Shown here piece after piece: positions 11,329 to 49,949 of a stretch of 64,000 nucleotides of DNA (positions are counted from its first letter, which is position 1; the number at the start of each line of letters is the position of its first letter). A program made the translations under genes and the position numbers. Source of the stretch: Botryllus schlosseri (Eukaryota); NCBI GenBank assembly GCA_051294905.1, contig CM119371.1, positions 6,822,001 through 6,886,000 on the forward strand, written 5' to 3'. Below the pieces are notes generated by a model. That model was not told the DNA's origin. It saw nothing but the letters and a program-made list of their open reading frames with translations, and did not search any database.

Positions 11329-12957
11329 CTATCTCTTCAAAAATACGGATGTGTAAATTTGAAAACCTTGATCTACTTTTGGTTTCACTATCGTCCATTT
11401 ATCCTGCGATGAATCAAACTTTTCAATTGTGTTAGAAGTTTCTCCATCTGTTACTGCAAAAATCCACTTGTCAATGTGATAAGCAGAAACTGGACCGTGA
11501 CAAGCATTCATACAAGATAATGAAGTCCACTGAGCTGAAGTAACATCGTAACATTCTACGTTGTCGATTTTCTTTCCTCCACTCACCCCACCGATCACAA
11601 ATATCTTCTGATCAACTGCAACAACACCACTCCCACACACAGGATATCTCATTGGGTCGAGATCAACCCACTCTGATGAAGATGGAGTGAATCTGCAGAA
11701 TGATGGAACTATGACACCATCTTGTGCTATACCGCCGATGCAATAGATGGAGTCATTCAATGATACGAGACTTGTTACACGAATCTCTGAAGGTTTGTCT
11801 TCTAGTTGAAACCATTGATTCACAAGAGAAGTAAATATTTCCACATCACTTGTTGCTTTATTATAACTTCCTCCAACAACAAAAATCGATCCCGACAAAG
11901 AAACTGAGCGAGGATACCATCCATGGTCACAAATCATATCTTTTATCCTTTCCCATTTTGAATTTTTGCTCTGAAAATTGAGTCGATGAACTGATTTATT
12001 CCTACATAAAATGTAGATATACGAGTCTAGAGAAATCGCTGAGAAATTTGTTAAATTCCCAAACTTCTCAACATGAAACTTTTCTACTTTCTCAGTTACT
12101 GGATTGAAGGATCGGATACAATCTGCGTCATCATCAAAAAGAATTATCAATTCATCATTGACAATTTCTTTATTCATTTTGTGCGATGCCTTTGAAGCTT
12201 CTAAAAGATGTCCAGTGATCAACTTGTACAGTCCCAAGTCGTTATTGATAATTTGGTTTGATTTCAAAAGACGTTCTAAAAATGCCGGAGGTACTTTATC
12301 AAACTTGATTGCTTCAAGACATTCGTCCAAATGTTCCTGATTTTTGCGATTTTTCTCAATCCAATTGAACAATAGCGTAAGTTTTTCTTCTTCGCACAAC
12401 TTTGATTTTTCTGAGATCACAAATTTGAGGATGTTGGTTTTTTCAATGCCTCCAAATTCAGGTTGGTTTGATATTTTCATGATATTTTCAATAAAAAACG
12501 CTTCACATCGTGTAGAGAGGGCATCCAGTCCATATATATCGGCAACATTTCTTGTGGGAAAGTAGTTCTCTACATCAACTGATTCCTCCAAAACGTCAGA
12601 TACTGCCTGCTTCACATCTTCCAACTGCATCATGATTGCGACATGTAGAAGATCATTCATCTTTTTATCAGGAATCTCAAATTTGCCCGAGTATATGAAA
12701 TCAATGCAGTTTTTCACACTCTGAGAATCGACCTCTTTCAAAACGACTTTTCCTTCACGACTCTCTTTAGTGTCGTGTTTCAACATCGCTTTGAAATAAG
12801 CACAACCAGCCGACAATACATTTTTGTGAGTGTAATAGACATCATCTCCCACTTGAATTATGAAATCACAATGATCGTTTTCTTGCTTCATTCGATGTAT
12901 TTCGTCCATCATCTTCACTGAATGTTTCTCTACATTTCTACACACAATCTGCACCAT
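11329..12957 (-). CDS. BTB-BACK-Kelch (kelch-like) protein, paralog 1, 542 aa, single coding exon
   Basis: Uninterrupted ORF with a BTB motif (HCDFIIQVG..THKNVLSAGCAYFKAML..CIDFIYSG), BACK helices (EEEKLTLLFNWI) and kelch repeats with GG and Y/W motifs (IFVVGG, IYCIGG, IFVIGG, VECYD..QW). Confidence 0.95.
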   Translation of the reverse strand: MVQIVCRNVEKHSVKMMDEIHRMKQENDHCDFIIQVGDDVYYTHKNVLSAGCAYFKAMLKHDTKESREGKVVLKEVDSQSVKNCIDFIYSGKFEIPDKKMNDLLHVAIMMQLEDVKQAVSDVLEESVDVENYFPTRNVADIYGLDALSTRCEAFFIENIMKISNQPEFGGIEKTNILKFVISEKSKLCEEEKLTLLFNWIEKNRKNQEHLDECLEAIKFDKVPPAFLERLLKSNQIINNDLGLYKLITGHLLEASKASHKMNKEIVNDELIILFDDDADCIRSFNPVTEKVEKFHVEKFGNLTNFSAISLDSYIYILCRNKSVHRLNFQSKNSKWERIKDMICDHGWYPRSVSLSGSIFVVGGSYNKATSDVEIFTSLVNQWFQLEDKPSEIRVTSLVSLNDSIYCIGGIAQDGVIVPSFCRFTPSSSEWVDLDPMRYPVCGSGVVAVDQKIFVIGGVSGGKKIDNVECYDVTSAQWTSLSCMNACHGPVSAYHIDKWIFAVTDGETSNTIEKFDSSQDKWTIVKPKVDQGFQIYTSVFLKR

Positions 12958-14986
12958 GATTGTCGATCAACTATAATTATCCTACGATTATTATAATATA
13001 GTCAAGCACTGTTATTGAATTAAAGATGATTAGTTAACTGAAGACTCAAGTAATGCCTGTTGAAAGAATCGTAATACGTATATCAACATCTCGAGAATGA
13101 ATTGAAGGACCTTCAACTACCCACAAGGTGAACACTGAACAGTGCTAAATCAGACGCAACCCTGCCATAATGCAGTTATGAAAACTTCATCCATCGATTT
13201 GCTTTACTTTTTATTCGTTGTATTATTGAGTATTGACACGAAACCTAAGAGTTATTGCGGTCTAATACCCCCACCTCGCGAATGATCGAGTTGATTATCC
13301 GTAATCTAAATTGTATTTTGGAACATCGTCAATTAATTTCATACTGTGGTATATTCCAGGAGCGGCCGCATCAGCTTCATCCTCCAACCGAATATCACAA
13401 AGATTGGTTTTAACAGAGAAGCAACACGAAAATCACACTGATATCACTCCGTGTTTGGAAACGAAATCAGCGAAGCATGTAGCTTGTCAGTGTCATCTAA
13501 CGGATAATTAGTTTTTGCATTTGCAGTGTAGCCGTTACCACCAATGATATAATATTTATCATTGCGGTTACTGACGCGATAAACCTTGTGCTAGCAGTAA
13601 CAGTTATTCAGTTTATGAATATTTTATTCATTTCAAAACACCACAAGACTGCGACTAGACGATGTAGACAGGGATATTTAGAACTAGTTCTAGATATCCG
13701 TGGATGTAGAGAAGAGGCATGCACTCACACTGAATGGAAAAAAGTAAAGCAGAAAATATAAAAGACAAGCTAGCCATACAAATGGGTACACCGGTACAAT
13801 CTTTGAAAATAGCGGGATTACCTCCAGCAAAAAGTGGAGTACGTTACCTGCATCCGCGTGACACTCTCCCTGACTGTAAAATCTGCATTCACCGTGTGCC
13901 CTTTGACATTCGTTTGTTGTTTTAGTTTCATCATGGAAAACTGAATGGGATAGAACGGTAACTACGTGGCCTGTCAATCATTTACGGTTGAATAACAATC
14001 AGTAGAGCCAGAATCTTTCGATGGTTTGCTGTTATTCTCCGGCTTACGTAACAGCGTACAACGGGCCAAGTAAGTGCTATTATTATTATCTTAAGTAACT
14101 TGTCTTGTCTAAATTACTTTGAATGTAATTATTGACAGTATCTGGCATGTGCCTTGATAACGTTATGAAGTGAATGACTTGTAAACTCCTTGACACAGAA
14201 ATGTCCCAACACTGCAAACTCAGGCCTCTCGCGCTTTCCCTTCACTCAGTTTTTCTTTCACATTGTCAGGTGATTGCCCAAACAAAGGTCAACTTTCCGG
14301 CCCAGCTCTCGAAATGGCCGCCGGAGCGTTACTGCAGTGCTGACTGATTATGTCTCTGTCGAATTCGGCCTTATATTTAACCTCAATTCTCAAAAAAAGA
14401 GGACATTTGGGCGTCCTCCAAGGACACTTTCACAAAAGTAAAAAAGAGGGCAAATCCTCTTAAAAGAGGACGTATTGTAACCCTACAATACAGAATGTTT
14501 GGTGATGACGCTGGCACGAAGATGATATCTTTTTCGAATGGACAGCATCTGTTGCAGCCTGTGCTAATGTTGAACATCATTACTATAAACGTTGAAGGCT
14601 ACTTTGGGTAAGTTTGATCTTTGTAGATGCCTGAGATTATGGGATGGTATTAATCCAAGTTTTGAATCGGTCTGTGCTGATTTGTTATGAGGCTTTCTTG
14701 TGATCTGTATACAGGGCAAACTAGTTGTTTACCTAGACTTATTAGACCGAAAAGCATGTCATCTAATTCTGTCTATTCTAACTAATTTTGAAATACTGTG
14801 TACTGTGTAGCTATAATTCTGATGCGGTTTGAATAAAAACTGTGTACTCCTAATTCAAATTCTAGTCTAATTTGTAAAAAGTGTATCGCTCTAATTCTGA
14901 TATAATTTGGAAAAGCTGAAAATTTCCTAGTTGTTCAAATTTGATGCAGTGGTAGTGTTAACATTTGTGTTACTCGTGCCAAGAAA

Positions 14987-29872: not shown

Positions 29873-31483
29873 CTATCTCTTCACAAATACGGATCTGTAA
29901 ATGTCCATTTGTCTTGTAAATGTCCATTTGTCTTGCGATGTATCATACTTTTCAATTGCCTTAGACGTTCTGAAATCTGCTACTGCAATAATCCACTTGT
30001 CAATGTGATATGCAGAAACCCACCCATGACAAGCATTCATAGAAGATAATGAAGTCCACTGAGATGAAGTAACATCATAGCATTCAACTGTATTGATGAC
30101 CTTTCCACTCCATCCACCGATCACAAATATCTTCTGATCAACTGCAACAGCACCACTCTCATAAACAGGATATCTCATTGGGTCGAGATCAACCCACTCT
30201 GACGAGGATGGAGTGAATCTGCTGAATGAAGAAACTGGAATAAGATCTTGTCCTCTACCTCCGATACAATAGATGGAATCATTCAATGATACGAGACTTG
30301 CTGCACAAATCCCTGTAGGTTTGTCTTCTAGCTGAATCCATTGATTCACGGGTGGTTTAAATATTTCCACATCACATGTTGCTTCAAGATAACTTCCTCC
30401 GACAACGAGTATTGATCCTGACAAAGAAACTGAGCAAGGATCGGTTCCATGATCACAAATCATATCTTTCGTCCTTTCCCATTTTGAATTTTTGCTCTGA
30501 AAATTGAGTCGATGAACTGATCTATTCTCACATAAAACGTAGATATACGAGCCTAGAGAAATTGCCGAAAAATTTGTTAAATTCAGAAACTTCTCATCAT
30601 GAAACTTCTCTACTTTCTCTGTTACTGGATTGAAGGATCGGATACAATCTGCCTTAGGATCAAAAAGAATTATCAATTCATCTTTTCCAATTTTTTCGTT
30701 TGTTTTGTGTGATGCTTTATACGTTTTCAAAAGATGTCCATTGATCAACTTGTACAGTCCAAAGTCGTTACTGATAACTACGTTTGATTCCAAAAGACAT
30801 TCTAAAAATGCCGGAGAGACTTTATGAAACTTGATTGCTTCGAGACAATCGCGCAAATGTTCTACATTATTGCGATTTTTCTCAACCCAATTGAACAATA
30901 CCGTTAGTTTTTCTTCTTCGCATAACTTTGATTGTTCCAACATCACATATTTGAGGAAGTTAGTTTTTTCAATGCTTCCAAATTCCGATTGATTTGATAT
31001 TTCCATGATATTTTCAAGAAAAAACGCTCTACATCGCGTAGACACGGCATCCAGTCCATACATATCGGCGACATTTCTTGTAGAAAAGTAATTCTTAACA
31101 TTAATTGATTCCACCAAAACGTCAGATATTGCCTGTTTCACATCTTCCAACTGCAACATGATCGCGACATGAATAAGATTATTCATCTTTTCTTCAGGAA
31201 TCTCAAATCTGCCGGAATATATGAAATCAATGCAGCTTTTCACACACCGAGAATCAACGTCTTTCAAAACAACTTTTCCTTCACGATTCTCTTTTGTGTC
31301 GTGTTTTAACATAGCTTTGAAATAAGCACAACCAGCCAACAATACATTTCTGTGAGTGTAGTAGACATCATCTCCCACTTGAATTATGAAATCACAATGA
31401 TCGTTTTCTTGCTTCATTCGATGTAATTCTTCCATCATCTTCACTGAATGTTTCTCTACATTTGGACACACAATCTGCACCAT
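29873..31483 (-). CDS. BTB-BACK-Kelch protein, paralog 2, 536 aa from the ATG at 31483
   Basis: Colinear with paralog 1. The ORF track starts at an upstream TTG; the shared ATG (MVQIVC) is at 31483. The C-terminus has been remodelled by an indel. Confidence 0.93.
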   Translation of the reverse strand: MVQIVCPNVEKHSVKMMEELHRMKQENDHCDFIIQVGDDVYYTHRNVLLAGCAYFKAMLKHDTKENREGKVVLKDVDSRCVKSCIDFIYSGRFEIPEEKMNNLIHVAIMLQLEDVKQAISDVLVESINVKNYFSTRNVADMYGLDAVSTRCRAFFLENIMEISNQSEFGSIEKTNFLKYVMLEQSKLCEEEKLTVLFNWVEKNRNNVEHLRDCLEAIKFHKVSPAFLECLLESNVVISNDFGLYKLINGHLLKTYKASHKTNEKIGKDELIILFDPKADCIRSFNPVTEKVEKFHDEKFLNLTNFSAISLGSYIYVLCENRSVHRLNFQSKNSKWERTKDMICDHGTDPCSVSLSGSILVVGGSYLEATCDVEIFKPPVNQWIQLEDKPTGICAASLVSLNDSIYCIGGRGQDLIPVSSFSRFTPSSSEWVDLDPMRYPVYESGAVAVDQKIFVIGGWSGKVINTVECYDVTSSQWTSLSSMNACHGWVSAYHIDKWIIAVADFRTSKAIEKYDTSQDKWTFTRQMDIYRSVFVKR

Positions 31484-34180
31484 GCTTGTCAATCATCCAC
31501 AATTGGCTATAATTATAGAGTGATCCTACGATTATTATGATATAGTCAAGCACTGTTATTGAAGGAAAGATGATGAGTAGGGCGATTTTCTTGAGATGTC
31601 AATATAAGTCTAAATTGAAGCGCTAGGTCAAAAATTGTTCACAAAGTCAAAATTTGTGTGACCTCTGCATTTCGTTTGTCCAGTAGATTTTGCACTGTCG
31701 GTGAACTTATCATTGTCCGCTCATTGTGAATCATAAATGGTATCAAGCAGACACTACTAATAAGCATTGGTCAGAAACGAAATTTATGAAATAGTCAAAT
31801 AGCATACGTGTAGTCTACATGCACTTAGTCAAGTATTCAAGGACTTGGACTTGCAGTCTTTCTTAATCATTTGTTCGACCCAAGCAGCTGAGCTACAGTA
31901 CATGTATTTTCAATTTGGTCAAGTGGGAAGCAGCGTTCGGTTATACTTACATTAATTACACAATTTAACGAAACCAGATAAACAACAACCTGATATTATT
32001 CAAAACACTGAGGCGAAGTGTAGATGTCAAACAAGCAGTAGTAACTAAAGCGAAAGAATCAAAACTTCTGTACAATATCATCTATACATAGTGACCATTA
32101 GAATATGCAACCTAAATTGCATATTTTCCTTAAGTAAAAGAAACCGTTATTGGCTTTGGGAATAGTGAGGATTAACACATCTGCGAAATGCAGTGGTTCT
32201 TGACCTTTTCATGGATGCAGCCCAATTTTCATTTCGCAAATATGCCATGATCCACAACTCAGCCTCAATTTCTATCTAAGCGGTGGCAATATGGCAGGTT
32301 TAGAGAGGTGACCTATTTAATGGGTGTTACATCACAATTCCCTTGTCATTGACATAAGTTATTGTTCAACTCAATAGCAGGTTGTAAATTGAGCATGGGG
32401 CGTCAATATCATTAACGAGCGGCACAGTGAAATTTTACGATTCTTCAAGGGATATCTGGACCTCGACAACTAGAACTTTTCAGATTTTTCAAATTAGGGC
32501 AAAATCAGAATAATAGCTACACTGTTTTTTTTTCAAATTAAGGGTAAAATCAGAATTATAGCTGAACATTATTTTCCAAACTAGATAAAAATTAGAAATA
32601 TAGTTACACTTTTTTCCAAATTATATTAGAATAGCCGAGTTCACGAAAACTTGGACATTAAATCAAGTTCAGTTCATATCAAATCATCGTTGCGAGCACG
32701 ATCAAGTCAAATGTCTGTACCGCAAGCTTAGCTCGTTTTGAGCTATACAGTTCTTCTGTAGCATTTGCAGGAAAACCGGAAATTAGATTAGAATTAAAAT
32801 TAGAGCATAGAAACATTTCTGAAATTAAATTTTAATTAGAGAAAGGGCACATTTCACGAAATCGATTACGTGCATTTCAATCGAATCAGTCAAATTGGAC
32901 AACTAAAATTATCTAGTTGTCCAAGTAGGTCTGGACAGTCTCCGCCTTATTGGGTCAACTGTGTGATTTGGAGCCCGAGTTGGATTGTTACTTGGTGCCT
33001 GCAGTGCGCTTTGCCTGGTCACTAGATGTCGACAAAATGAAGGAGGCGCTTTTCGTAATGAGTTCACGACAAATGTGAAATTTTGTCGGTGTCTGCTTCT
33101 GTGACAACCTGCGATCCAGTGATGGGGCTGGGGTTTAAATTTTACGAATTCTGCGTTTGGCTGCTTCGAGCCACCGCATTCTTACTCCCCTTCAAAATTT
33201 TCCGGGTATGCGCTGCTTCACGTCCTCCTAGATCTGCAAAAAATAGTAGCGAGTCAGTCAATACTAGCATTGGAATCACATGTTATTAGGATATTTTACA
33301 AATCCCGGGATTTCGAGAAAGCATCTTCTAGAGCAGTGGTTCTCAACCGGGGGTCCGCGGAGCCTCAAAATAGTTGATAAGCTAATTTGTATTTTTTCAA
33401 ATTCGGAAAATCACGAGGCACTTTCGCTTCATTACTCGAAAGAGTGCGGGGCTGACATCAACAGAATGGCAGTCTGAGGTGAAATATCAGACTCATTTTA
33501 ATTGCTAAATAGCGATAGCCTAGGGATACAAACATTTTTCTGTTACGAGATGTTTTGTTGGATGAGTAAGGTCAGGCACGGTGATTTCAAAATGTTTACA
33601 AAAACCCATTTTCTCTTTAGATAACCATTTTTCCATAACAACTTCACGATAAACTGCTAGATAGAAATGACCAGGATTGTGATAAGGGGCGTGCAGCTTC
33701 TCCAGTCGGCTGGTCCGATATGGAAAAATTAGGTACTGGAGGCGGACCAGATTCCTGAGTTGATACATAAATCGTGTATTTATCCACCTATATATCTATT
33801 GCAGAGGTGGGCAACCTTTTTGGCGTCCACGGCCGCATTTCGAATACTTCGGCGCCATACGGCCGCCAGCCATATGTGAGTTGACTAAAAAAATCTCAAT
33901 CTTCCGTTTTGAATCCCGAAATACCCGTTAACGTTATTTGGGTTGATAAAGTCAACCATACCCATTGTCGTCGCGAATGCCGAAATCCACATTTCACGCC
34001 ACTTTAGTGCAATCCACAAGCTTGAAGACGCGGTATAATTGCCTACGAAGACATTTGGCCGCCCTCGGAGGACATTTTAGCTTTGTTTAAAAACTTAATT
34101 TCTACTAATCTTATCATATCTAATAAATACCAAACATATTTTGAAACGAATATATTTAAGGAAAGTCTCTAACATTGAAA

Positions 34181-35998
34181 TCAGTGACTTCCTTGATTTT
34201 GCATACGAGATGACAAACTTGCAAAATTGGGAACCTCACGCGACACCATAAGTCTTAGTTGCGACTCTAGGTTTCCGTTCAGTAAGCGAGTTCGGTACTC
34301 GTTTTTCAGGTATTTCATTTGCGAAAAGGCAGACTCGCACACGTAAGTGCTTCCGAAAATAACAAGAGTTTCTTTAGCCAATTCTCGCAAAAGTGGATAT
34401 TCATGGGCCATTTTCCACGTGTCAATCAAATTCTCCTCGCACTTGAACTTTGTCACAAGCTGCTCATCATTCTTCAATTCCAACAGCTCCATCTGAAGGT
34501 GTGGCGGTGCACTTTCCGTTTCCACCAGGTGTGGAAAGGCAACAAGTCGTAATGTATGTGATATTTTTTGGAAATCTTTGAAACGATCTGCGAAATCCTG
34601 CAACACAGTATCAAAAATCCCCGAAAATAAAGTGATCGGAATCTTTTCTACCTTTATTTCGCAGCTGTCGATGAGAGACTTAAGTTGTGTAAAATGGAAA
34701 AAATCACGCTGCTGAATATGAAGTTTAAGGAGACGACATTTGTCACGAAAATCCGATACTTTTTTGTACATGGTGCATATCGTTGCTTCTTTTCCTTGTA
34801 GGCTTCGGTTTAAAATGTTAACATGGGACAGAAAATCCACAAGAAACGCCAAATATATGACAAAGCTCTCATTTTGTAAGGGGCAGTCTTTATTTTTTGT
34901 GGAATAAAATTCCAGTATTTCTTCTCGCAACTGTAGAACACGACGAGATGTGTCTCCTTGGGACAACCAACGTACTGCGGCGTGGTAGAGAATGTCTTCT
35001 GCCGACGTTTCGCGCTCTTGCAGAAGTTCTTGAAATTGCCTATGATGAAGACCATTTGCACGAATGTACAAGATGATGCGATTGACGTCTTTCAGAGTGT
35101 CATTTAAGGCAACAGATTTGACACTCAAGGCTTCTTGGTGGATAATACAATGAAGGTTTGTGAGCTGGTTATTATCGTACTCTTTCGACACGAATTCTGA
35201 AAATCTTGTCACAAAGCCATTTGTGTTACCTATCATTGCAGGTGCTCCATCTGTACAAATACCGCGAAGATTTTTCAAGTCTAATCCATTGCGAATGCAA
35301 GCATTCTTAACAGCCCCAAATATGTCTTCACCACGAGTGTGGGTGGAGAGTGTTTCCATTGAGAGCAGATCTTCGCAGAACTCAAAATTTGGAGACAGAG
35401 AGCGAATGAAGATCAATAGTTGTGCAGAGTCCTTAATGTCAGTCGATTCGTCGATAGCCAGTGAAAATAAAGTTGCTTCCTCATTAACCTTTGTCTGTAT
35501 GGAGATCGTCAACTGTTTGGCGATATCATCTTGCCGACGCTGAATTGTACGACGCGAGAGAGGAATTGGAGAATAATCAGTTTCCTTACCAGGATGAATG
35601 CACCTAACAACGTCCACGAGACATCGCTTATGTAGTTCGCCATCTGAATAAGGCTTTCCCGCTGCACCAAGATGATATGCGACTATATAAGACGCTTCGC
35701 ACAACTTATTTTTCGACTGAATGAAAGCTGATATGCAAGATGTCTGCATTTGCACACTTTTCTTCAAACTTTCGAGACGACTTTTCCTCGACTCACCCAC
35801 CATTTTTGCGTACTTGTGTGACTCATGACGACGAAAATGCTGCCTTGCATTATCTCCTTTAACAGTTTTGACCACTTGATTGCATATCAGACACATCATA
35901 GTATGGGCTGCCGTTTCTACCATAAAATAATCCAACTCCCATTTGATATTAAATGCCCTCTTCTCCTCTGTTACTGTTCTTTTTCGTTTTACTGACAT
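34181..35998 (-). CDS. hAT transposase, Buster/SPIN/GTF2IRD2-like group, copy A, 605 aa from the ATG
   Basis: Contains an N-terminal zinc finger (CLIC..HFRRH), the catalytic motifs AIDESTD and CTDGAPAM, CxxH (HCIIHQE), RW (VRWLS) and the C-terminal dimerisation motif FGSTYVCESAFS. The ORF is intact. The likely ATG (MSVKRKR) is at 35998; the track starts at GTG 36100. Confidence 0.95.
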   Translation of the reverse strand: MSVKRKRTVTEEKRAFNIKWELDYFMVETAAHTMMCLICNQVVKTVKGDNARQHFRRHESHKYAKMVGESRKSRLESLKKSVQMQTSCISAFIQSKNKLCEASYIVAYHLGAAGKPYSDGELHKRCLVDVVRCIHPGKETDYSPIPLSRRTIQRRQDDIAKQLTISIQTKVNEEATLFSLAIDESTDIKDSAQLLIFIRSLSPNFEFCEDLLSMETLSTHTRGEDIFGAVKNACIRNGLDLKNLRGICTDGAPAMIGNTNGFVTRFSEFVSKEYDNNQLTNLHCIIHQEALSVKSVALNDTLKDVNRIILYIRANGLHHRQFQELLQERETSAEDILYHAAVRWLSQGDTSRRVLQLREEILEFYSTKNKDCPLQNESFVIYLAFLVDFLSHVNILNRSLQGKEATICTMYKKVSDFRDKCRLLKLHIQQRDFFHFTQLKSLIDSCEIKVEKIPITLFSGIFDTVLQDFADRFKDFQKISHTLRLVAFPHLVETESAPPHLQMELLELKNDEQLVTKFKCEENLIDTWKMAHEYPLLRELAKETLVIFGSTYVCESAFSQMKYLKNEYRTRLLNGNLESQLRLMVSREVPNFASLSSRMQNQGSH

Positions 35999-36602
35999 AT
36001 TGCGATGTAGACCAACTTTATAATGTAATTGGGCTATAAGGAAAAAGTTTTGTCTCAATGTATTATTCTCTTTCCGTTTGCTCAATACACCCACACCCAC
36101 TCAATGTTATCCGCTTACCAAGGCTTTTATAACTACGGTTCAACCTATCGCAGTATCGCCAATAGGCCCCTCACATTTGGACTTCGCGACAAGACTGACT
36201 AAGCTTAGTCCTTGGTCCTCATACTTAACCGACATTTGCGAAGTGTGACGTAACAATGCAATAATAAAACGCTAGGCGAAGTCAGCTTTACCGGCAACCG
36301 GTAGTCATGACAAGTGACGACTGGAAATAAAATTATCCAATTCACTGAAGGCGTTACACAGACAATTACGGGTTCATGTTAATGGAAACTTTCAAGATTG
36401 TATAGAAACTCCTTCTGTCCACATACATGAGGATTGGTCAATTTCATAATGGTTGACTCCAATACATACAGATGAGAAGCAGATCTCTATATTTAGCAAT
36501 CATTATTGTGCCCTCAACTCTCGATAAAGTGCACGATAGTCGCATATTCGTATCGCAGGAAGCCTAATAAGCAAATCTGAAATTGAAGAACCCGGACTAG
36601 GA

Positions 36603-36684
36603 CGGGGCTCGTTCACTTTCGGACCAAAAACACATTTTCCCCGTAAGGATGTAGTGAGTTTGGTCCGAAAGTGAACGAGCCCCG
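36603..36684. repeat. 26-bp perfect inverted repeat (hairpin) in the hAT 5' non-coding region; also at 40116-40197
   Basis: CGGGGCTCGTTCACTTTCGGACCAAA ... TTTGGTCCGAAAGTGAACGAGCCCCG. Confidence 0.9.
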
Positions 36685-36952
36685 CAGGTCCGTCTTTTAG
36701 TGGGTAGATTGCAGTATTATATTATGTCGCTAAAAGCAGCTGGAAACGCAGTCACTGAGTATGCAGTGAAAGAGTTTACCACAGTGATTTAACAATACCC
36801 TCCATCGTCGTAATAAGTTTTATCATACATGTAACATATGATCCATCAACACACGGCCGCCAGCACATGCATTTCACATCACGCGCTCACGGCCGCACAA
36901 TTATGCCTCCACGGCCGCATGCGGCCGTACGGCCGCAGGTTGCCCACCCCTG

Positions 36953-37314
36953 GCCTACAGTTACAACTCTGCTACCAGATTGTTGCAATTCAAAAGTTAC
37001 GTCGAATGAGCCTATCGGCGTATTCCTGGCTATTGTAGTTTAGGAGATATTGGCAGATTTAGCCATTTTGGGGGGTATGAAAATTTATGAAAAGTTCAAT
37101 TCCACCAAGATTTCTCTATGTTCCCGAGGGCCTACAGTTACAACTCTGCTACCAGATTGTTGCAATTCAAAAGTTACGTCGAATGAGCCTATCGGCGTAT
37201 TCCTGGCTATTGTAGTTTAGGAGATATTGGCAGATTTAGCCATTTTGGGGGGTATGAAAATTTATGAAAAGTTCAATTCCACCAAGATTTCTCTATGTTC
37301 CCGAGGGCCTACAG
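36953..37314. repeat. Two identical 177-bp tandem monomers plus 8 bp (satellite-like cargo between the hAT copies)
   Basis: GCCTACAG recurs at 36953, 37130 and 37307 (period 177). The two monomers read identical, and I found no copy elsewhere in the window. Confidence 0.92.
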
Positions 37315-40300
37315 CAGAGGTGGGCAACCTTTTTGGCGTCCACGGCCGCATTTCGAATACTTCGGCGCCATACGGCCGCCAGCCATATGTGAGTTGACTA
37401 AAAAAATCTCAATCTTCCGTTTTGAATCCCGAAATACCCGTTAACGTTATTTGGGTTGATAAAGTCAACCATACCCATTGTCGTCGCGAATGCCGAAATC
37501 CACATTTCACGCCACTTTAGTGCAATCCACAAGCTTGAAGACGCGGTATAATTGCCTACGAAGACATTTGGCCGCCCTCGGAGGACATTTTAGCTTTGTT
37601 TAAAAACTTAATTTCTACTAATCTTATCATATCTAATAAATACCAAACATATTTTGAAACGAATATATTTAAGGAAAGTCTCTAACATTGAAATCAGTGA
37701 CTTCCTTGATTTTGCATACGAGATGACAAACTTGCAAAATTGGGAACCTCACGCGACACCATAAGTCTTAGTTGCGACTCTAGGTTTCCGTTCAGTAAGC
37801 GAGTTCGGTACTCGTTTTTCAGGTATTTCATTTGCGAAAAGGCAGACTCGCACACGTAAGTGCTTCCGAAAATAACAAGAGTTTCTTTAGCCAATTCTCG
37901 CAAAAGTGGATATTCATGGGCCATTTTCCACGTGTCAATCAAATTCTCCTCGCACTTGAACTTTGTCACAAGCTGCTCATCATTCTTCAATTCCAACAGC
38001 TCCATCTGAAGGTGTGGCGGTGCACTTTCCGTTTCCACCAGGTGTGGAAAGGCAACAAGTCGTAATGTATGTGATATTTTTTGGAAATCTTTGAAACGAT
38101 CTGCGAAATCCTGCAACACAGTATCAAAAATCCCCGAAAATAAAGTGATCGGAATCTTTTCTACCTTTATTTCGCAGCTGTCGATGAGAGACTTAAGTTG
38201 TGTAAAATGGAAAAAATCACGCTGCTGAATATGAAGTTTAAGGAGACGACATTTGTCACGAAAATCCGATACTTTTTTGTACATGGTGCATATCGTTGCT
38301 TCTTTTCCTTGTAGGCTTCGGTTTAAAATGTTAACATGGGACAGAAAATCCACAAGAAACGCCAAATATATGACAAAGCTCTCATTTTGTAAGGGGCAGT
38401 CTTTATTTTTTGTGGAATAAAATTCCAGTATTTCTTCTCGCAACTGTAGAACACGACGAGATGTGTCTCCTTGGGACAACCAACGTACTGCGGCGTGGTA
38501 GAGAATGTCTTCTGCCGACGTTTCGCGCTCTTGCAGAAGTTCTTGAAATTGCCTATGATGAAGACCATTTGCACGAATGTACAAGATGATGCGATTGACG
38601 TCTTTCAGAGTGTCATTTAAGGCAACAGATTTGACACTCAAGGCTTCTTGGTGGATAATACAATGAAGGTTTGTGAGCTGGTTATTATCGTACTCTTTCG
38701 ACACGAATTCTGAAAATCTTGTCACAAAGCCATTTGTGTTACCTATCATTGCAGGTGCTCCATCTGTACAAATACCGCGAAGATTTTTCAAGTCTAATCC
38801 ATTGCGAATGCAAGCATTCTTAACAGCCCCAAATATGTCTTCACCACGAGTGTGGGTGGAGAGTGTTTCCATTGAGAGCAGATCTTCGCAGAACTCAAAA
38901 TTTGGAGACAGAGAGCGAATGAAGATCAATAGTTGTGCAGAGTCCTTAATGTCAGTCGATTCGTCGATAGCCAGTGAAAATAAAGTTGCTTCCTCATTAA
39001 CCTTTGTCTGTATGGAGATCGTCAACTGTTTGGCGATATCATCTTGCCGACGCTGAATTGTACGACGCGAGAGAGGAATTGGAGAATAATCAGTTTCCTT
39101 ACCAGGATGAATGCACCTAACAACGTCCACGAGACATCGCTTATGTAGTTCGCCATCTGAATAAGGCTTTCCCGCTGCACCAAGATGATATGCGACTATA
39201 TAAGACGCTTCGCACAACTTATTTTTCGACTGAATGAAAGCTGATATGCAAGATGTCTGCATTTGCACACTTTTCTTCAAACTTTCGAGACGACTTTTCC
39301 TCGACTCACCCACCATTTTTGCGTACTTGTGTGACTCATGACGACGAAAATGCTGCCTTGCATTATCTCCTTTAACAGTTTTGACCACTTGATTGCATAT
39401 CAGACACATCATAGTATGGGCTGCCGTTTCTACCATAAAATAATCCAACTCCCATTTGATATTAAATGCCCTCTTCTCCTCTGTTACTGTTCTTTTTCGT
39501 TTTACTGACATATTGCGATGTAGACCAACTTTATAATGTAATTGGGCTATAAGGAAAAAGTTTTGTCTCAATGTATTATTCTCTTTCCGTTTGCTCAATA
39601 CACCCACACCCACTCAATGTTATCCGCTTACCAAGGCTTTTATAACTACGGTTCAACCTATCGCAGTATCGCCAATAGGCCCCTCACATTTGGACTTCGC
39701 GACAAGACTGACTAAGCTTAGTCCTTGGTCCTCATACTTAACCGACATTTGCGAAGTGTGACGTAACAATGCAATAATAAAACGCTAGGCGAAGTCAGCT
39801 TTACCGGCAACCGGTAGTCATGACAAGTGACGACTGGAAATAAAATTATCCAATTCACTGAAGGCGTTACACAGACAATTACGGGTTCATGTTAATGGAA
39901 ACTTTCAAGATTGTATAGAAACTCCTTCTGTCCACATACATGAGGATTGGTCAATTTCATAATGGTTGACTCCAATACATACAGATGAGAAGCAGATCTC
40001 TATATTTAGCAATCATTATTGTGCCCTCAACTCTCGATAAAGTGCACGATAGTCGCATATTCGTATCGCAGGAAGCCTAATAAGCAAATCTGAAATTGAA
40101 GAACCCGGACTAGGACGGGGCTCGTTCACTTTCGGACCAAAAACACATTTTCCCCGTAAGGATGTAGTGAGTTTGGTCCGAAAGTGAACGAGCCCCGCAG
40201 GTCCGTCTTTTAGTGGGTAGATTGCAGTATTATATTATGTCGCTAAAAGCAGCTGGAAACGCAGTCACTGAGTATGCAGTGAAAGAGTTTACCACAGTGA

Positions 40301-40465
40301 TTTAACAATACCCTCCATCGTCGTAATAAGTTTTATCATACATGTAACATATGATCCATCAACACACGGCCGCCAGCACATGCATTTCACATCACGCGCT
40401 CACGGCCGCACAATTATGCCTCCACGGCCGCATGCGGCCGTACGGCCGCAGGTTGCCCACCCCTG
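37315..40465 (-). mobile_element. Autonomous hAT (Buster-type) transposon, copy B, 3151 bp
   Basis: Same TIRs and length as copy A. Left flank GCCTACAG, right flank ATCTATTG. Confidence 0.95.
37694..39511 (-). CDS. hAT transposase, copy B (translation identical to copy A)
   Basis: Identical translation, offset exactly 3513 bp from copy A. Confidence 0.95.
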   Translation of the reverse strand: MSVKRKRTVTEEKRAFNIKWELDYFMVETAAHTMMCLICNQVVKTVKGDNARQHFRRHESHKYAKMVGESRKSRLESLKKSVQMQTSCISAFIQSKNKLCEASYIVAYHLGAAGKPYSDGELHKRCLVDVVRCIHPGKETDYSPIPLSRRTIQRRQDDIAKQLTISIQTKVNEEATLFSLAIDESTDIKDSAQLLIFIRSLSPNFEFCEDLLSMETLSTHTRGEDIFGAVKNACIRNGLDLKNLRGICTDGAPAMIGNTNGFVTRFSEFVSKEYDNNQLTNLHCIIHQEALSVKSVALNDTLKDVNRIILYIRANGLHHRQFQELLQERETSAEDILYHAAVRWLSQGDTSRRVLQLREEILEFYSTKNKDCPLQNESFVIYLAFLVDFLSHVNILNRSLQGKEATICTMYKKVSDFRDKCRLLKLHIQQRDFFHFTQLKSLIDSCEIKVEKIPITLFSGIFDTVLQDFADRFKDFQKISHTLRLVAFPHLVETESAPPHLQMELLELKNDEQLVTKFKCEENLIDTWKMAHEYPLLRELAKETLVIFGSTYVCESAFSQMKYLKNEYRTRLLNGNLESQLRLMVSREVPNFASLSSRMQNQGSH

Positions 40466-41259
40466 ATCTATTGTAACCTTTAAGTTTAAATTAGACACCA
40501 AAAACAGTAATTGTGGATTATTCGTAATGTAATTCAATAGCTGTTGAAGTCAATGAGACAGCTGTGGTAATCAAAGTTGTCAACAAGTTCTTTAAACTCT
40601 GGCTGCATGTCAGCAGTAGAAACCCTTGGGAGAGAATACAAGTGAATGACAGTTAGATTGTTAATGTTCATGGTAGAAAATGTTTGCTCGCAAATGTATG
40701 TAGACCCGCGGGTCACATTATCATGGGACACCGGAGACTGTTCGTCAATTTTGGTGCCATGTTTATTGTGATCATACCCAAATGAGTCGTCTGAAGCGTT
40801 ACGTATTATTATTTCATTCGCCAACATCTGTATTTGTGGAAATGGATTTTCGGCGCTCGTTAATATCCTATCGAAGGCGCGGATTTTCAAGACACGACCA
40901 TGTATTACAAGAACTGCAATTGCCGAATTCACTTTGAAGTAATAGTAGTAAACTCAAGTTCTAGATCGATAATAGGATCTTAATTTCAAGTATAGGCATT
41001 TTGATGCTGATAATCACTAAGTTTATGGTTATCATTTGCACAAGACAAATGACGTTTGCACGATAATTGAGCTAAATTTGAACTACTACTTTGTGGGGGT
41101 CTGGGAGGGTCCGTGACAGTCCGAAAGGGATTCGCGAATACAAAAAGGTTGGGAACCACTGTTCTAGAGCTGAAGAAGTGCTTAGTTTGCTCTTAAAGCA
41201 GCGTTACAATATCATTTGAATGTCTTGAACACGTTACATGACATTACAAACTATTGCAT

Positions 41260-44200
41260 AACAATGAACTACAATCTTCAATCTTTTTCGCAACGGTACA
41301 CCATTTTAAAGAATGTTCTAAACTTGCCCACCTCAGTTCAAATAATACATCGAATCCGTAGAAATCCTAATCGGAATAGGGATGTTACCCCGCTGCAATC
41401 CATCGGAAATGCTAATGCTACAAACAAATCAGTTTTCAACATAACTGGATCACGATCGAACACAGCATGGTTTTCAACCACGGCCTACGAAACAATATTA
41501 GGAAACCGTGAACTGCTTGAAAATATAATTTGTGACATCGGAAGCCAGGGCAGACCAACACAAACCCAGATCTCTGCACCGTGTAGTCAGATTCCAGGTT
41601 TAAAGAGTGTATTTATGATTGATTATCAAAACTACTTACATAATTCAGTAGTTTTCAAAGACAGCAAATTCTTTTTCTCCTTGAGGTAGTCTACTTCCGG
41701 GTTGCTTGGAAAATAGTGTTACAATACGTCCTCCTTTCTCAGGTTTTTGAAAATGTCCTCCGAGGACGCAGAAATGTCCTCCTTTTTGACATTTCGTCCT
41801 CTTTTACAGCCAAGGTAATGGATAGATTGGAGTGAGAATGGGCATAAATGACCCTAAATAGGAAATTCGTAGTTCGATGAAAAGTGAGGACGTTTTTTTT
41901 TCAAGTCAACACCACTAATTTCAAGTAAAAAGTCTGTAAAACGGGAGTCCAACGAAAGTGATGACCTTTTTTTTAGTGAAGCAACCATCAAGTCAAGAAT
42001 ATTTTTTGACATTTTTTCCGGATGTTTCTCCAGTACCGTAATTCTGAAAATTTCGAAAAGTGGCCTCTTTTCAGATTTCCAAAATATGGTAATGGTAACC
42101 CGATCGGAAAAGAAATACTTTGACTCGTACTGGAGTGAACTTCGCATTGATACCTTTACTTGGAGTAGCTTTCTCGACCACTTTTGATCATGCATACAGG
42201 CTCATGCAATCTCAGATAGTTATTCTTAGTAACTATTATGAGACAGACACGACCTACCGATCGAGAAGCCGGACACATAACCATTACACTATCTCGCTCG
42301 GTGGACTTTACCTCCATCCAAATTTACTGGTATTGGTGTGCAATATTTATTTCATGATTTCTTTGTCAGCTCGGAATGGGTAAATATTGAATGTAGACAT
42401 AGGTAAAGAGTGTAAATATTGGTGTGCTCATGTCACCGGAGATAGCATAGTGCTACGAATATATACGGGATTTCATTCTGAAATTCTCAACATCACGGAC
42501 ATAATGTTTACTATATATTTGTAACACTGTTTCCAATTCTGGATATGTCACAGTATTTCAGAGCAACTCACCTGATGTCATCGTGATTACAGAAAATCTT
42601 GATATTGAGATCTTGTCTTTTGGCCGGTGACAAGGTCTGGAAGAAAATCTCACAATTACACAGCCGGCAAAATAGATTTGAACCAGAATTGAACAACTGG
42701 AAAATGTTCAGCTTTTCCAAAATAGATTCGAGTTACAGCTGCGAAGTTTTTTCCAAATTAGAGTAGAATTATAGCTACACAGTTATTTCCAAATTATATT
42801 AAAATCATGTTTATAGCTAGCTTTGTTCCAATTAGATTAGAATTCACACAAACTCATGGTTCATTCTTAGGAGCGTGAATTGAGTAAAGCATGCTGTATG
42901 ATAATAGCAAATGTCTGTAGAGCAGGCTTGGCTTGTTTCGCACTATATAGTTCTCCTGTCGCATTTACAGGAAAACCAGACATTAGATTAGAAATAAAAT
43001 TAGAGCATAGAAACATTTTACAAATTGGATTAGAATTAGATTACTGATACCAGCATTTAGGAAGATATGTTTGGTTACTAGAATCTGCCTGAGGCCTGCT
43101 TGAATGAATGCTTTTAGACAGGATTTCAAAGAACATGCAGCACGGGGAAGGATAGCTGTTAGCCTATTAGCCAATCTTCAATTGTTCTATTAGCAGCCAT
43201 TCACGGTTCAATCAGTTCCTACAAGCCAGGATATTAACTTCTGAGTTGGAGCAAATTGAAAACTATGGCATGACAATGAACTACAATCTTCTTCAATCTT
43301 TTTGTAATGGTACACCCTTTTAAAGAATGCTCAAAACTTGGCCACCTCAGTTCAAATAATACATCGAATCTGTAGTATTCCTAATCAGAAGAGGGATCTT
43401 ATCCTGCTGCAGTCTATAGGAAATGCTAATGCTACAAACAAATCAGCTTTCCACATAACTGGATCACAATCGAACACAGTGGTTTTCAACCAGGGTTTAC
43501 GAAACATTATTAGGAAACTGCAAACTGATTTATAAATAAAATTCGTGACTTTGGAAGCTCGGGCAGACCAACACAAACCCAGATCTCTGCACCGTGTAGT
43601 CAGATTCCAGGTTTATAAGAGTGTATTTATGACTGGTTATCAAAACTACTCACATAATTCAGTAGTTTTCAAAGACAGCAAATTCATTTCCTCCTTGAAA
43701 TAGTCTACTTCTAGGTTGCTTGGAAAATAGGGTTCCTTTTACAGGTTCATGAAAATGTCTTCAGACGATGCCTAAATGTCCTCCTTTTTGGCAATTCGTC
43801 CTCCTTTACAGCTTTTACAGCGAAGATAATGGATAGAGTCAAGTTAAATTGGCATAAATGACGCTAAATGGGGAATTGGCGGTTCGACCAAAAGTGAATA
43901 CCGTATATACATTTTTCTCAAAGTCAACACCACTAATTTCAAGTAAAAAGTGTGTAAAACGGGAGTCGTACGAAAGTGATGACCTTTTTTTAGTCAAGCA
44001 ACCATCAAGTCGAGAAAAAAGTTAATATTTTTTCCGGATGTTATTCCTGTATTATAAGTCTGAAAATTTTGAAAAAGTGTTCTCTTTTCAGATTTCCAAA
44101 ATATGGTAATGGTAACTCAATTGGAAAAGCAATACTTTTACTCGTACCGGAGTGAACTTTGCATTGCTAATTTTACTCGGAGTAACTTTTTCGACCACTT

Positions 44201-46922: not shown

Positions 46923-48563
46923 TCAGTTGAGTGCAATCTCTCTCTTCACAAATACAGATTTGTAAATTCGACAACATCGATCTACTTTTGGTTTCACTAC
47001 AGTCCATTTGTCTTGTGATATATCATATTTTTCAATTTGATTAGAGGTTTCTCCATCCGTTACTGCAAAAATCCACTTGCCAATGTGATAAGTAGAAATT
47101 CTATAATGACAAGCATTCATAGAAGATAATGAAGTCCACTGAGCTGAAGAAACATCGTAACATTCTACGTTGTCGACATGGAATCCTCCCCTGACCCCAC
47201 CGATCACAAATATCTTTTGATGAATTGCAACAACACCACTCGCACGTACAGGATATCTCATTGGGTTGAGATCAACCCACTCTGATGAGGATGGAGTGAA
47301 TCTGCAGAATGATGAAACTTCATCATAATCCTGTTTTATACCTCCAATACAATAGATGAAATCATTTGTTGATACGAGACTAGCATCATATATCGCTGTT
47401 GGTTTGTCTTCTAATTGAATCCATTGATTCAGGGAAGAAATAAACATTTCCACATCACTTGTTGCTTTATTGCTTGCTCCAACAACAAATATCGATCCTG
47501 AAAAAGAAACTGAGCAAGGCCGGCATCCATGATCACAAAGCATATCGTTCATTCTTTCCCATTTTGAACTTTTGCTCTGAAAATTGAGCCGATGAACTGA
47601 TTTATTCCCACATAAAATGTAGATATATGAGTCTAGAGAAATCGCAGAAAACTTTTTTAAATTCTCATACTTCTCATCATGAAACTTCTCAAGTTTCTCA
47701 GTTACCGGATTAAAGGATATGATACAATCTGCCTTAACATCAAAAAGAATTATCAATTCATCATTGCCAATTTCTTTGTTTGTTTTCTGTGATGCTTTCG
47801 GAGCTTTCAAAAGATGTCCAGTGATCAACTTGTACAATCCTAAGTCGTTATTGATGATTAGGTTTGATTCCAAAAGACATTCTAAAAATGCCGGAGAGAC
47901 TTTATCAAACTTGATTGCTTCTAGACATTCGTGCAAATGTTCCTGATTTTTGCAATTTTTCTCGACCCAATTGAACAATAAAGTTAGTTTTTCTTCTTCG
48001 CATACCTTTGATTGTTCCGACATCACAGATTTGAGGAGGTCAGTTTTTTCAATGCTGCCAAATTCAGGTTGGTTTGATATTTCTATGATATTTTCATGAA
48101 AAAATGCTCTACATCGCGTAGAGACGGCATCCAGTCCATACATATCGGCGACATTTCTTGTGGGAAAGTAGTTCTCTACATTAACTGATCGCTCCAAAAC
48201 GTCAGATACTGCCTGTTTCACATCTTCCAATTGCATCATGATTGCGACATGAAGAAGATCATTCATCTTTTCATCAGAAATCTCAAATTTGCCAGAATAT
48301 ATGAAATCGATGCAGTTTTTCACACACTGAGAATCGACCTCTTTAAAAAGAACTTTTCCTTCACGACTCTCTTTGGTGTCATGTTTCAACATAGCTTTGA
48401 AATAAGCACAACCAGCCGACAACACATTTTTATGAGTGTAATAGACATCATCTCCTACTTGAATTATGAAATCACAATGATCATTTTCTTGCTTCATTCG
48501 ATGTAATTCTTCCATCATCTTCACTGAATGTTTCTCAACATTTCGACACACAATCTGCACCAT
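46923..48563 (-). CDS. BTB-BACK-Kelch protein, paralog 3, 546 aa from the ATG at 48563
   Basis: Colinear with paralogs 1 and 2. The TAG used in paralogs 1 and 2 is GAG here, which adds EIALN. Confidence 0.93.
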   Translation of the reverse strand: MVQIVCRNVEKHSVKMMEELHRMKQENDHCDFIIQVGDDVYYTHKNVLSAGCAYFKAMLKHDTKESREGKVLFKEVDSQCVKNCIDFIYSGKFEISDEKMNDLLHVAIMMQLEDVKQAVSDVLERSVNVENYFPTRNVADMYGLDAVSTRCRAFFHENIIEISNQPEFGSIEKTDLLKSVMSEQSKVCEEEKLTLLFNWVEKNCKNQEHLHECLEAIKFDKVSPAFLECLLESNLIINNDLGLYKLITGHLLKAPKASQKTNKEIGNDELIILFDVKADCIISFNPVTEKLEKFHDEKYENLKKFSAISLDSYIYILCGNKSVHRLNFQSKSSKWERMNDMLCDHGCRPCSVSFSGSIFVVGASNKATSDVEMFISSLNQWIQLEDKPTAIYDASLVSTNDFIYCIGGIKQDYDEVSSFCRFTPSSSEWVDLNPMRYPVRASGVVAIHQKIFVIGGVRGGFHVDNVECYDVSSAQWTSLSSMNACHYRISTYHIGKWIFAVTDGETSNQIEKYDISQDKWTVVKPKVDRCCRIYKSVFVKREIALN

Positions 48564-49949
48564 GATTGTCAATCAACTACAGTATATAATTATTCGACGA
48601 TTACTATAATATAGCCAAGTACTGTTACTGAATTAAAGATGATTAGTTAACTATTCATTAGTAATGCCTGTTCTGTTGAAGGAATCATAATAATCCGTAT
48701 CAACGTCAAGAGTACGAATTGAAGGAAATTCAACTACACACAAGGTGAACACTGACCAGTGCTAAATCAGAGACATCCCTGCCAAACTGCCATAATGCAG
48801 TTATAAAAACTTCTTCCATCGATTTGCTTTACTTTTTATTCATTGTATAGACACGAAACGAAAGAGTTATTGCAGTCGATTACTACGACCTCAGGAATGA
48901 TCGAGTTGATTATCCGTAATCGAAATTGTATTTTGGAACATATTTAAATAATTCTGTACTATGGTATATTCCAGGGGTGGGCGCACCTGTTTCATGCTCC
49001 AACCGAATATATCAAAAATTGATTTTAAAAGAGCAGCAACAAGAAAGATCACGCTGATTTCACTCCGTGTTTGGAAACGAAATCAGCGAAGCATGAGGCT
49101 TGTCAGTGCTATCTCACGGATAATTAGTTTTTGCATTTGCAGTGCGGCTGTTTACCAATGATAAATATATATGTCATTGCGGTTACTGACGGGATAAGCC
49201 TTGTTCTATCAGTAACCGCTATTCAGTTTATTATTATTTTCTTCATTTCAAAACACCACAAGACTGCGACTAGGCGATATAGAGAAGAGGCATGCACGCA
49301 CACTGAATGAAAAGTACAGCAGAAAATATAAAAGACAAGCTAGCCGTACAAATGGGTAAAATCTTCGAAAATATATGCAATTACGATAGTTATAGGTCCA
49401 AAGAATAGTCCAAGTAGTTGTGGAAGTAAAATTTCAAAATGTCACCATTATGGTATGTAGCGCAAATAAGCAGAACGCACAAAAGTACTTTGAATAGGGA
49501 CAATCTTCAGTAATATGTTCAGTTACGATAAGTGACTATTTTACGGGCTTCTTAAGACAATTTCACTCATAAAAACGATCCCAATTATCCAAAAGCTTTC
49601 CCAAACCCAAAGTGTAAAAATTAGTTTGCATATAATCTGTTCAAGTAGTTGCTTTTACTAATGGCATAAAAAGATAGCTACTTCAGTACTTCCCAAAAGT
49701 GGTATTACATTGTTATAGACCCCCTCTGGCAATGTCCCTAACTTTGCGCAGGATGACCAATTTTATTGTCGTCATAGCAGTATCAATTCAAACGAGCTTT
49801 CGAACGGCTATAGCGGTATTACTTCTTGCAAGCCGTGGAGAAAATGAACTGCATCCGCGTGACTCTCTCCCTGACTGTAAAATCTGCATTCACTGTGTAC
49901 CCTTTGACATTCATTTGTCGTTATAGTTTTATGCTTGGTTGTTCCAAGT

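Follow-up and report, generated by a model that had tools for sequence, protein, structure and literature searches.

A compound hAT unit with satellite cargo in Botryllus schlosseri: a probable macrotransposon

Anatomy of the compound unit

Here we describe a compound transposon locus in a 64,000-nucleotide stretch of the Botryllus schlosseri genome (GenBank assembly GCA_051294905.1, contig CM119371.1, positions 6,822,001 to 6,886,000 of the forward strand). This whole stretch is called the window below, and positions given without a contig name refer to it. The locus consists of two hAT-type DNA transposons, copies A and B, which enclose two monomers of a 177-bp satellite. From left to right, the order is ATCTATTG, hAT A, a 362-bp spacer, hAT B and again ATCTATTG (Table 1). 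The two copies lie in the same orientation and show 0 differences over 3151 positions. The spacer measures 2 x 177 + 8 bp: both monomers start with GCCTACAG, match each other at 177/177 positions and are followed by one extra GCCTACAG. Taken together, hAT, satellite and hAT form a unit of 6,664 bp with a repeat period of 3513 bp (3151 + 362).

The flanks of the two copies are central to the interpretation of this locus. Copy A is bordered by ATCTATTG / GCCTACAG and copy B by GCCTACAG / ATCTATTG, so that neither copy has a target-site duplication (TSD) of its own, and one 8-bp duplication is common to the two outer junctions (the arithmetic chance of one 8-mer match is ~1.5e-5). Two elements of the same family thus stand in direct orientation with host DNA, here 362 bp of satellite, between them, as in a macrotransposon. 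The whole unit is one insertion, as seen from the outer duplication and from the paralogous and allelic empty sites described below.

Table 1 Coordinates of the compound unit and its host element in the window, and of related elements elsewhere in the assembly (locations beginning with C name a contig). ORF, open reading frame; TIR, terminal inverted repeat.
Feature	Location	Strand	Basis or remarks
Outer TSD, copy 1 (ATCTATTG)	33794-33801	.	single in 5/5 paralogues and in the empty allele of run X15
hAT copy A, 3151 bp	33802-36952	-	TIRs at 33802-33817 and 36937-36952
Transposase ORF of copy A, 605 aa	34181-35998	-	Pfam domains; Atlas neighbours
Cargo: 177-bp monomer 1 (36953-37129), monomer 2 (37130-37306), extra GCCTACAG (37307-37314)	36953-37314	+	window sequence
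hAT copy B, 3151 bp	37315-40465	-	0 differences from A
Transposase ORF of copy B, 605 aa, same as that of A	37694-39511	-	translation
Outer TSD, copy 2 (ATCTATTG)	40466-40473	.	window sequence
Left TSD of host element (TTCTAGAG)	33326-33333	.	same 8-mer at 41162-41169
Left part of host SPIN-like element, through target ATCTATTG	33334-33801	+	TIRs, TSD, paralogues
Right part of host SPIN-like element	40474-41161	+	paralogues
Right TSD of host element (TTCTAGAG)	41162-41169	.	same 8-mer as left
Family a tandem, 8 copies	C11:11529330-11564081		158-type satellite in opposite orientation between copies
Element f1, SPIN-like, 2576 bp	C2:7229078-7231653		TIR CAGTGTTTCTCAACC
Element f2, 4067 bp	C2:7231821-7235887		apparently with an extra 1.5 kb
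Family b, TIR start CAGGGGTCGGCAACC	C40 (1203 bp), C35 (1595 bp), C55 (1932 bp), C6 (1528 bp)		C6 copy in opposite orientation
Family c, TIR start CAGTGGTTCTCAACC	C15 (1473 bp)		
Family d, TIR start CAGGGGTTCTCAGCC	C27 (1232 bp)		

A first-pass annotation of the window had already given this order of elements with two 3151-bp copies, had noted that neither copy has matching flanks, and had placed one 8-mer around a unit of about 6.66 kb and a different one around the cargo; all of this agrees with the coordinates, with ATCTATTG outside and GCCTACAG inside. Its diagram is right in layout and differs in the length of the spacer, which would be 370 bp if read literally and is 362 bp, since the first GCCTACAG belongs to monomer 1. 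Its descriptions of the two transposases as identically translated, and of the target 8-mers as fitting nnnTAnnn, are likewise borne out by the data that follow, and its description of the transposases as intact fits their full-length ORFs.

Each element ends in short TIRs of 16 nt, as in the hAT superfamily, consisting of CAGAGGTGGGCAACCT and its near-complement (15/16 positions complementary; CAG...CTG). The motif ACGGCCGC occurs twice within ~65 nt of one end and four to five times within ~100 nt of the other (33802-33870 and 36850-36952, and the same positions in copy B), and nowhere in the hAT interior; these repeats are candidate subterminal binding sites of the transposase. Both copies encode the same 605-aa protein. 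Two Pfam domains exceed their cut-offs in it, a hAT dimerisation domain (PF05699; 28.2 bits, cut-off 21.4) and a Spin-doc zinc finger, whereas DUF4371 stays below its own (22.9 bits, cut-off 32.1). The proteins of the nearest protein Atlas clusters (GTF2IRD2-like, FAM200 and ZBED5-like) measure 593-645 aa, and the ORF is therefore full length; that these clusters bear FAM200-ZBED5 RNase-like domains is a lead only. A sequence search of the PDB with the transposase returned a single, meaningless match to an eIF-2B chain (E = 0.56).

To judge the flanks of A and B, we compared them with normal insertions of the same family, hereafter family a. Our search for hAT copies listed 87 matches, with the best 40 of 878 first-look candidates scored; among the matches listed, related copies elsewhere in the genome are 91-99% identical, the closest to A and B at ~99% (5563 vs 5683 bits). 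The ends were read for 11 of 19 near-full-length dispersed copies. Ten of these 11 carry their own perfect 8-bp duplication, as is usual for hAT elements (CTGTAGAG, CTTTAACG, GTCTAGAT, CTCTACAG, ATGTAGAG, ATTTAGAG, CTCTAGAT, GTCTACGT, GTATAGGC and ATCTAAAG), and the eleventh, at C15:5688178, lacks a matching one. Because normal insertions make a duplication of their own, the sharing of only an outer one by A and B is a real signal. All 14 target 8-mers read for the family have TA at positions 4-5. This corresponds to the consensus nnnTAnnn of Buster-type hATs, and a GTF2IRD2-like protein is placed in the Buster clade, both according to the accessible part of the source (PMC3517528). From the target consensus and the nearest Atlas clusters, A and B appear to be Buster-like hATs.

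Empty sites and genomic setting

A SPIN-like, non-autonomous element of hAT type, 1156 bp long (33334-41161), hosts the compound unit; this host has the TIR CAGTGGTTCTCAACC and its own duplication TTCTAGAG. The family of this host element is large, with 3838 first-look candidates in the genome and many paralogues at 74-88% identity; left-flank paralogues on the same contig reach 80-88%, and with a 472-bp left-flank query (33330-33801) the closest paralogue in the assembly is 86% identical. All five flank paralogues that we fetched run unbroken through a single site, ...TATATATCTATTGTAACC... (ATTTATTG in one of them), into the homologue of the right flank, and thus show the target without the unit.

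An allelic counterpart of these paralogous empty sites was found among assembled contigs (Logan) of four runs, X1, X15, X16 and X20, which we compared with positions 37130-41300. Run X15 derives from the same organism, from another sample and study. One of its contigs lies on the window from 40466 onward and is preceded by TACATAAATCGTGTATTTATCCACCTATAT, which equals positions 33764-33793 in 30/30 letters. The flank paralogues differ from this stretch at 3 or more positions, and since the contig matches the exact left flank where they differ, it is the empty site of this very locus, with a single ATCTATTG. The insertion is therefore polymorphic and young, which fits the identity of A and B. 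The first-pass annotation had called the event very recent and had named an allele with a single copy of the outer 8-mer as one outcome to look for; both expectations agree with these data.

Further contigs touch the same positions. The last 78 letters of a 126-nt contig of X1 lie on 40466-40543; its first 48 letters are off the stretch, and it may represent the empty allele as well, in what is probably the sample behind the assembly. Contigs of X15, X16 and X20 join hAT ends (37315 and 40466-40471) to flanks absent among the 11 copies read, which may stem from insertions elsewhere that are perhaps polymorphic. At position 41169, contigs of X15 and X20 have one common continuation and one contig of X16 has another: they agree with the host element as far as its right duplication and diverge from the window beyond it, and another X15 contig crosses the same position unchanged. 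The divergent contigs may come from further copies of the host element or reflect an adjacent structural polymorphism.

The surroundings are genic. Three uninterrupted minus-strand ORFs of 539-549 aa with BTB-BACK-Kelch architecture lie ~17-18 kb apart (11329-12966, 29873-31492 and 46923-48572), and the window lies in a tandem BTB-BACK-Kelch gene cluster. The target of the compound unit is 2.3 kb from a BTB-Kelch gene, and the same-contig paralogues of the flank at 6.71-7.49 Mb may be units of the same cluster.

The satellite, its insertion hotspot and paired elements elsewhere

A genome search with the 177-mer (495 Mb in 219 contigs) gave at least 128 matches at 97-99% identity. Of 20 stretches fetched, 15 are 177-bp arrays and the other five a related variant of ~158 bp (hereafter 158-type). 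The 177-bp arrays contain as many as 56 consecutive monomers in 10 kb and occur on C6, C36, C27, C20, C40, C15, C35 and C55; satellite is also present at all 28 further loci and fills the entire 1.8-3.2 kb at 27 of these. With long head-to-tail arrays at several loci, the 177-mer is a satellite, and the possibility that it is single-copy sequence, raised in the first-pass annotation as an outcome that would overturn its proposal, did not materialise; nor did the other such outcome that it named, a single element in long reads. Neighbouring monomers are identical in 55 of 444 pairs, and a perfect dimer such as the cargo is therefore not unusual. An origin of the satellite from one of the transposons was considered and rejected, as its sequence is similar neither to families a-e nor to the host element.

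The 8-mer with which each cargo monomer starts is an insertion hotspot. At least six hAT-type families (a, b in both orientations, c, d, e and f) sit at exactly this position of the monomer, and they carry a duplication of the 8-mer wherever both flanks lie in one satellite type. In 177-type arrays, families b, c and d, which have different TIRs, are all inserted at GCCTACAG and all show that duplication. Family a itself is inserted at the homologous position in 158-type satellite, with the duplication GCCTAGAA on C141 and, in the opposite orientation, with CTCTAGGC on C11. The first-pass annotation had suggested a check for copies of this hAT at the 8-mer within arrays of the 177-mer. Such insertions were seen for other families, and for family a at the homologous 158-type site; among the candidates scored (best 40 of 477 and best 40 of 430), no full hAT-to-177 junction was seen elsewhere. 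In genome-wide pattern scans, the arrangement element end, site, satellite was found at 80 junctions (3 in a reversed-pattern control), and satellite, site, element start at 94 (0 in the control). Junctions without a partner on chromosome-scale contigs, such as C1:1918411, C1:15055394, C5:3966605, C8:20493817, C11:775994 and C11:24488761, are candidate exported units or remnants of them. The monomer holds 14 TA-centred 8-mers, among which a rough position-weight matrix built from 10 duplications places GCCTACAG first, narrowly (5.6 vs 4.5 and 4.3), a sample too small to explain the hotspot.

Elements arranged in direct pairs with short satellite spacers are present at several places. The eight family a copies on C11 (Table 1) have ~5-7 monomers between neighbours and recur every 4381-4705 bp, and two of them differ by 2 nt; each has a ~440-bp insertion at element position 2570 and lacks ~18-33 bp near its right end. 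Two further family a copies, on C141, lie 8,244 bp apart and differ by 4 nt. On the chromosome-scale contig C10 (7397175-7406802), 2.58-kb elements of family f are separated by three monomers, and at C101:5690-37236 elements of 2.13 kb are separated by one to three or more. At the outer borders of the C10 array, the predicted start of the first element is absent and other elements follow after two monomers; this array could be an exported unit that has since been amplified. These four arrays provide the direct pairs with short satellite spacers that movement as a composite unit needs, and none of them is the actual donor. A degenerate hAT copy at 19.968 Mb of C13, with 158-type satellite on its left and a truncated right side, was uninformative.

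Pairing of junction coordinates pointed to one further isolated short spacer, at C2:7231651-7231823, which belongs to a second compound unit (C2:7229078-7235887). Here, two elements of family f, f1 and f2, stand in direct orientation with GCCTAGAG, one 158-type monomer and GCCTAGAA between them, and the duplication TACTAGCC lies on both outer sides. A solo copy of the family on C8 (2575 bp) is bordered by a duplication of its own, CAATAAAC. Identity between f1 and f2 is 98% in the first 120 bp and 100% in the last 114 bp, and no ORF of at least 80 aa was found in the part of f1 that was read. Another hAT family, apparently non-autonomous, has thus given rise to the same architecture, and the C2 unit is older than the one in the window. 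We consider this second unit the strongest argument that the structure in the window reflects a mechanism rather than an accident.

Mechanism, alternatives and known systems

We interpret the unit in the window, with a probability of roughly 80%, as a hAT macrotransposon, that is, as a pair of elements that moved as one with their satellite cargo. In the course of events that we propose, an autonomous Buster-like hAT would have inserted at GCCTACAG in a 177-bp array. A second, identical copy would then have come to stand two monomers further downstream, facing the same way. It may have been duplicated along with its array unit, as on C11 and C141, or have inserted locally at the hotspot in a second event; both origins are equally possible. 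The transposase would have used the outer ends of the upstream and the downstream copy as a pair, and the 6,664-bp segment would have been excised and pasted into ATCTATTG within the SPIN-like element, with one 8-bp duplication forming around the whole unit. The first of two models in the first-pass annotation, in which an element duplicated together with its array moves by its outer ends, fits every test that we ran. The bacterial-style movement that it described is not a new mechanism but macrotransposition, known from maize hATs, and the array duplication that it assumed could equally be a second local insertion.

Several observations weigh against this interpretation. A donor array of this hAT in 177-type satellite was not found in the assembly, and the full junction was found only here (best 40 of 477 and best 40 of 430 candidates). 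No donor may be left because cut-and-paste movement takes the unit out of its original locus; the cargo and the hotspot share one register, and other satellite variants and families do have arrays of the donor type. None of the 570 sampled monomers equals the cargo monomer, the minimum being 1 mismatch. That this transposase acts on the outer ends is deduced from structure. Among the contigs listed for the four runs, none bridges the satellite and copy B or copy B and its flank, and none joins 40465 back to 37130, which says nothing either way; read-level confirmation of the two inner or two outer junctions was likewise not obtained among them. Finally, two elements on C15 lie between satellite types without a matching duplication. 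The first, of family e (C15:4766496-4769421; 2925 bp, TIR CAGGGGTGGGCAAAC), has CTCTAGGC in reverse 158-type satellite on its left and GCCTACAG in forward 177-type satellite on its right; it marks an array junction and a flip of orientation, so that a rearrangement passed through the element. The second is a 99% identical copy of family a (C15:5688178-5691325), flanked on the left by 177-type satellite with CTGTAAGC and on the right by 158-type satellite with CTCTAGGC. In this genome, recombination or alternative transposition between satellite-embedded copies therefore takes place, and the alternative considered next gains prior weight.

According to this alternative, which includes the second model of the first-pass annotation and its relatives, a solo hAT already resided at ATCTATTG, and either a 3,513-bp circle of one hAT and two monomers integrated into it by homologous recombination or a break in it was repaired from an ectopic hAT-satellite-hAT template. 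The final structure would be the same, down to the period of 3513 = 3151 + 362 bp; units that could pop out as circles are present in the arrays on C11, C141 and C101, and the elements at satellite-type borders indicate that satellite-embedded hATs join rearrangements. However, this route requires two rare events instead of one, and the resident and incoming copies would have to match at all 3151 positions, where the closest other copy among the matches listed is ~99% identical. The allele seen in the other sample is empty rather than solo, even if contigs cannot show that a solo allele is absent, and the C2 unit would demand the same coincidence again. We therefore regard recombination with a resident copy as improbable, while giving it more weight than any other alternative.

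An assembly artefact appears very unlikely. In this case, the true locus would hold one hAT or none, the assembler having been threaded through identical copies into satellite, or, more mildly, the number of tandem units would be wrong. Perfect 3.15-kb repeats around a perfect tandem dimer are indeed a sequence that assemblers mishandle, and no junction-spanning reads were found among the contigs listed. Yet the outer junctions share an 8-bp duplication of a site that is single in 5/5 paralogues and in an allele, which a mis-thread would not create around a satellite insert, and among the candidates scored above no other locus of the assembly has this hAT-to-177 junction to supply the reads. 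The unit is also short (6.7 kb) relative to an assembly of 219 contigs for 495 Mb, which points to long reads, and an independent locus on C2 has the same architecture. To two separate hAT insertions beside a pre-existing satellite dimer we give next to no credence: the monomer site is a hotspot for the hAT family, but separate insertions would each have their own duplication, in place of ATCTATTG / GCCTACAG for A and GCCTACAG / ATCTATTG for B, and the paralogous and allelic empty sites contain no satellite.

If the unit is a macrotransposon, it bears on the question of how satellite DNA reaches new places, above all in euchromatin. In the accessible part of a 2024 preprint (10.1101/2023.04.24.538079), this spread is called 'still quite a mystery', and the proposed routes comprise extrachromosomal circles, repeats inside transposons and gene conversion. 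The locus in the window would represent one concrete route; it is young and polymorphic, with every junction intact, and together with the older C2 unit it makes the idea directly testable. The first-pass annotation had suggested that such elements seed satellite DNA at new loci. Delivery of one or two monomers is shown (two in the window, one on C2), whereas expansion at a new locus is not shown. We tentatively extend this to a broader proposal, which we hold to be possible at somewhat below even odds: hAT macrotransposition may be a recurrent exit of satellite monomers from arrays into gene-rich DNA, in which one 8-bp landing pad used by at least six families repeatedly makes carrier pairs, and later loss of the elements leaves orphan monomers able to seed arrays.

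A literature search, with subscription-only papers outside its coverage, found no paper linking macrotransposons with satellite DNA. The mechanism itself, hAT macrotransposition, is already known; new are the setting, with a Buster-like and a SPIN-like hAT instead of maize Ac-type elements, the satellite cargo instead of genes, and the link to a hotspot in the monomer that serves several transposon families and yields competent pairs. The units in the window and on C2 would extend macrotransposition past maize Ac-type elements to a Buster-like hAT.

In bacterial composite transposons such as Tn5 and Tn10, two copies of an IS element bracket a cargo and the outer ends are used. Their transposase families are unrelated to that of the unit described here and their copies are often in inverted orientation, so that the likeness is functional only. 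Closer counterparts are the Ac/Ds macrotransposons of maize, reportedly described by Huang and Dooner in 2008 and by Wang et al. in 2022. These units of 10-28 kb excise and reinsert, and the excision of one of 28 kb with a footprint is documented in the accessible part of PMC9910405. As is proposed for the window, a pair of hAT elements or hAT ends in direct orientation moves together with the host DNA that it encloses and leaves or creates a single 8-bp duplication. By that account, the maize cases concern a plant, hATs of the Ac clade, cargo of genes or enhancers and mostly experimental stocks, whereas the window holds a Buster-like hAT with satellite cargo and an array donor context with a shared hotspot, its movement being read from its structure.

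A natural event is represented by the Tam3L macro-transposon at the maize White Cap (Wc) locus, where, as far as the accessible part of the report goes, an intact hAT has no 8-bp duplication of its own and the outer junctions share GTTCTAGT (10.1101/082677). It shows the same two features as our unit, and its region is young, uniform and able to amplify in tandem. Unlike our unit, with its 362 bp of satellite and a donor not found in the assembly, it moved a gene segment (Ccd1 and neighbours) over 1.9 Mb from a known donor locus.

Transposons that spread short tandem arrays into euchromatin are also known from animals. Satellite-like repeats lie inside non-autonomous Helentrons of oyster (PMC7492417) and inside Tetris of Drosophila virilis (cited in 10.1101/2023.04.24.538079). 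In both, judging from the accessible parts of these sources, the repeats are internal to a single element, whereas in the window two complete elements enclose monomers of host satellite that are external to both. The nearest precedent in concept is a review model (PMC6947457, Fig. 5A), in which tandem repeats are moved between two flanking cut-and-paste transposons via TIRs of different copies. The idea is the same, namely satellite monomers carried between two copies; in the accessible part of the review it is offered as speculation without an example, whereas the loci described here provide two structural examples with duplications, and empty sites.

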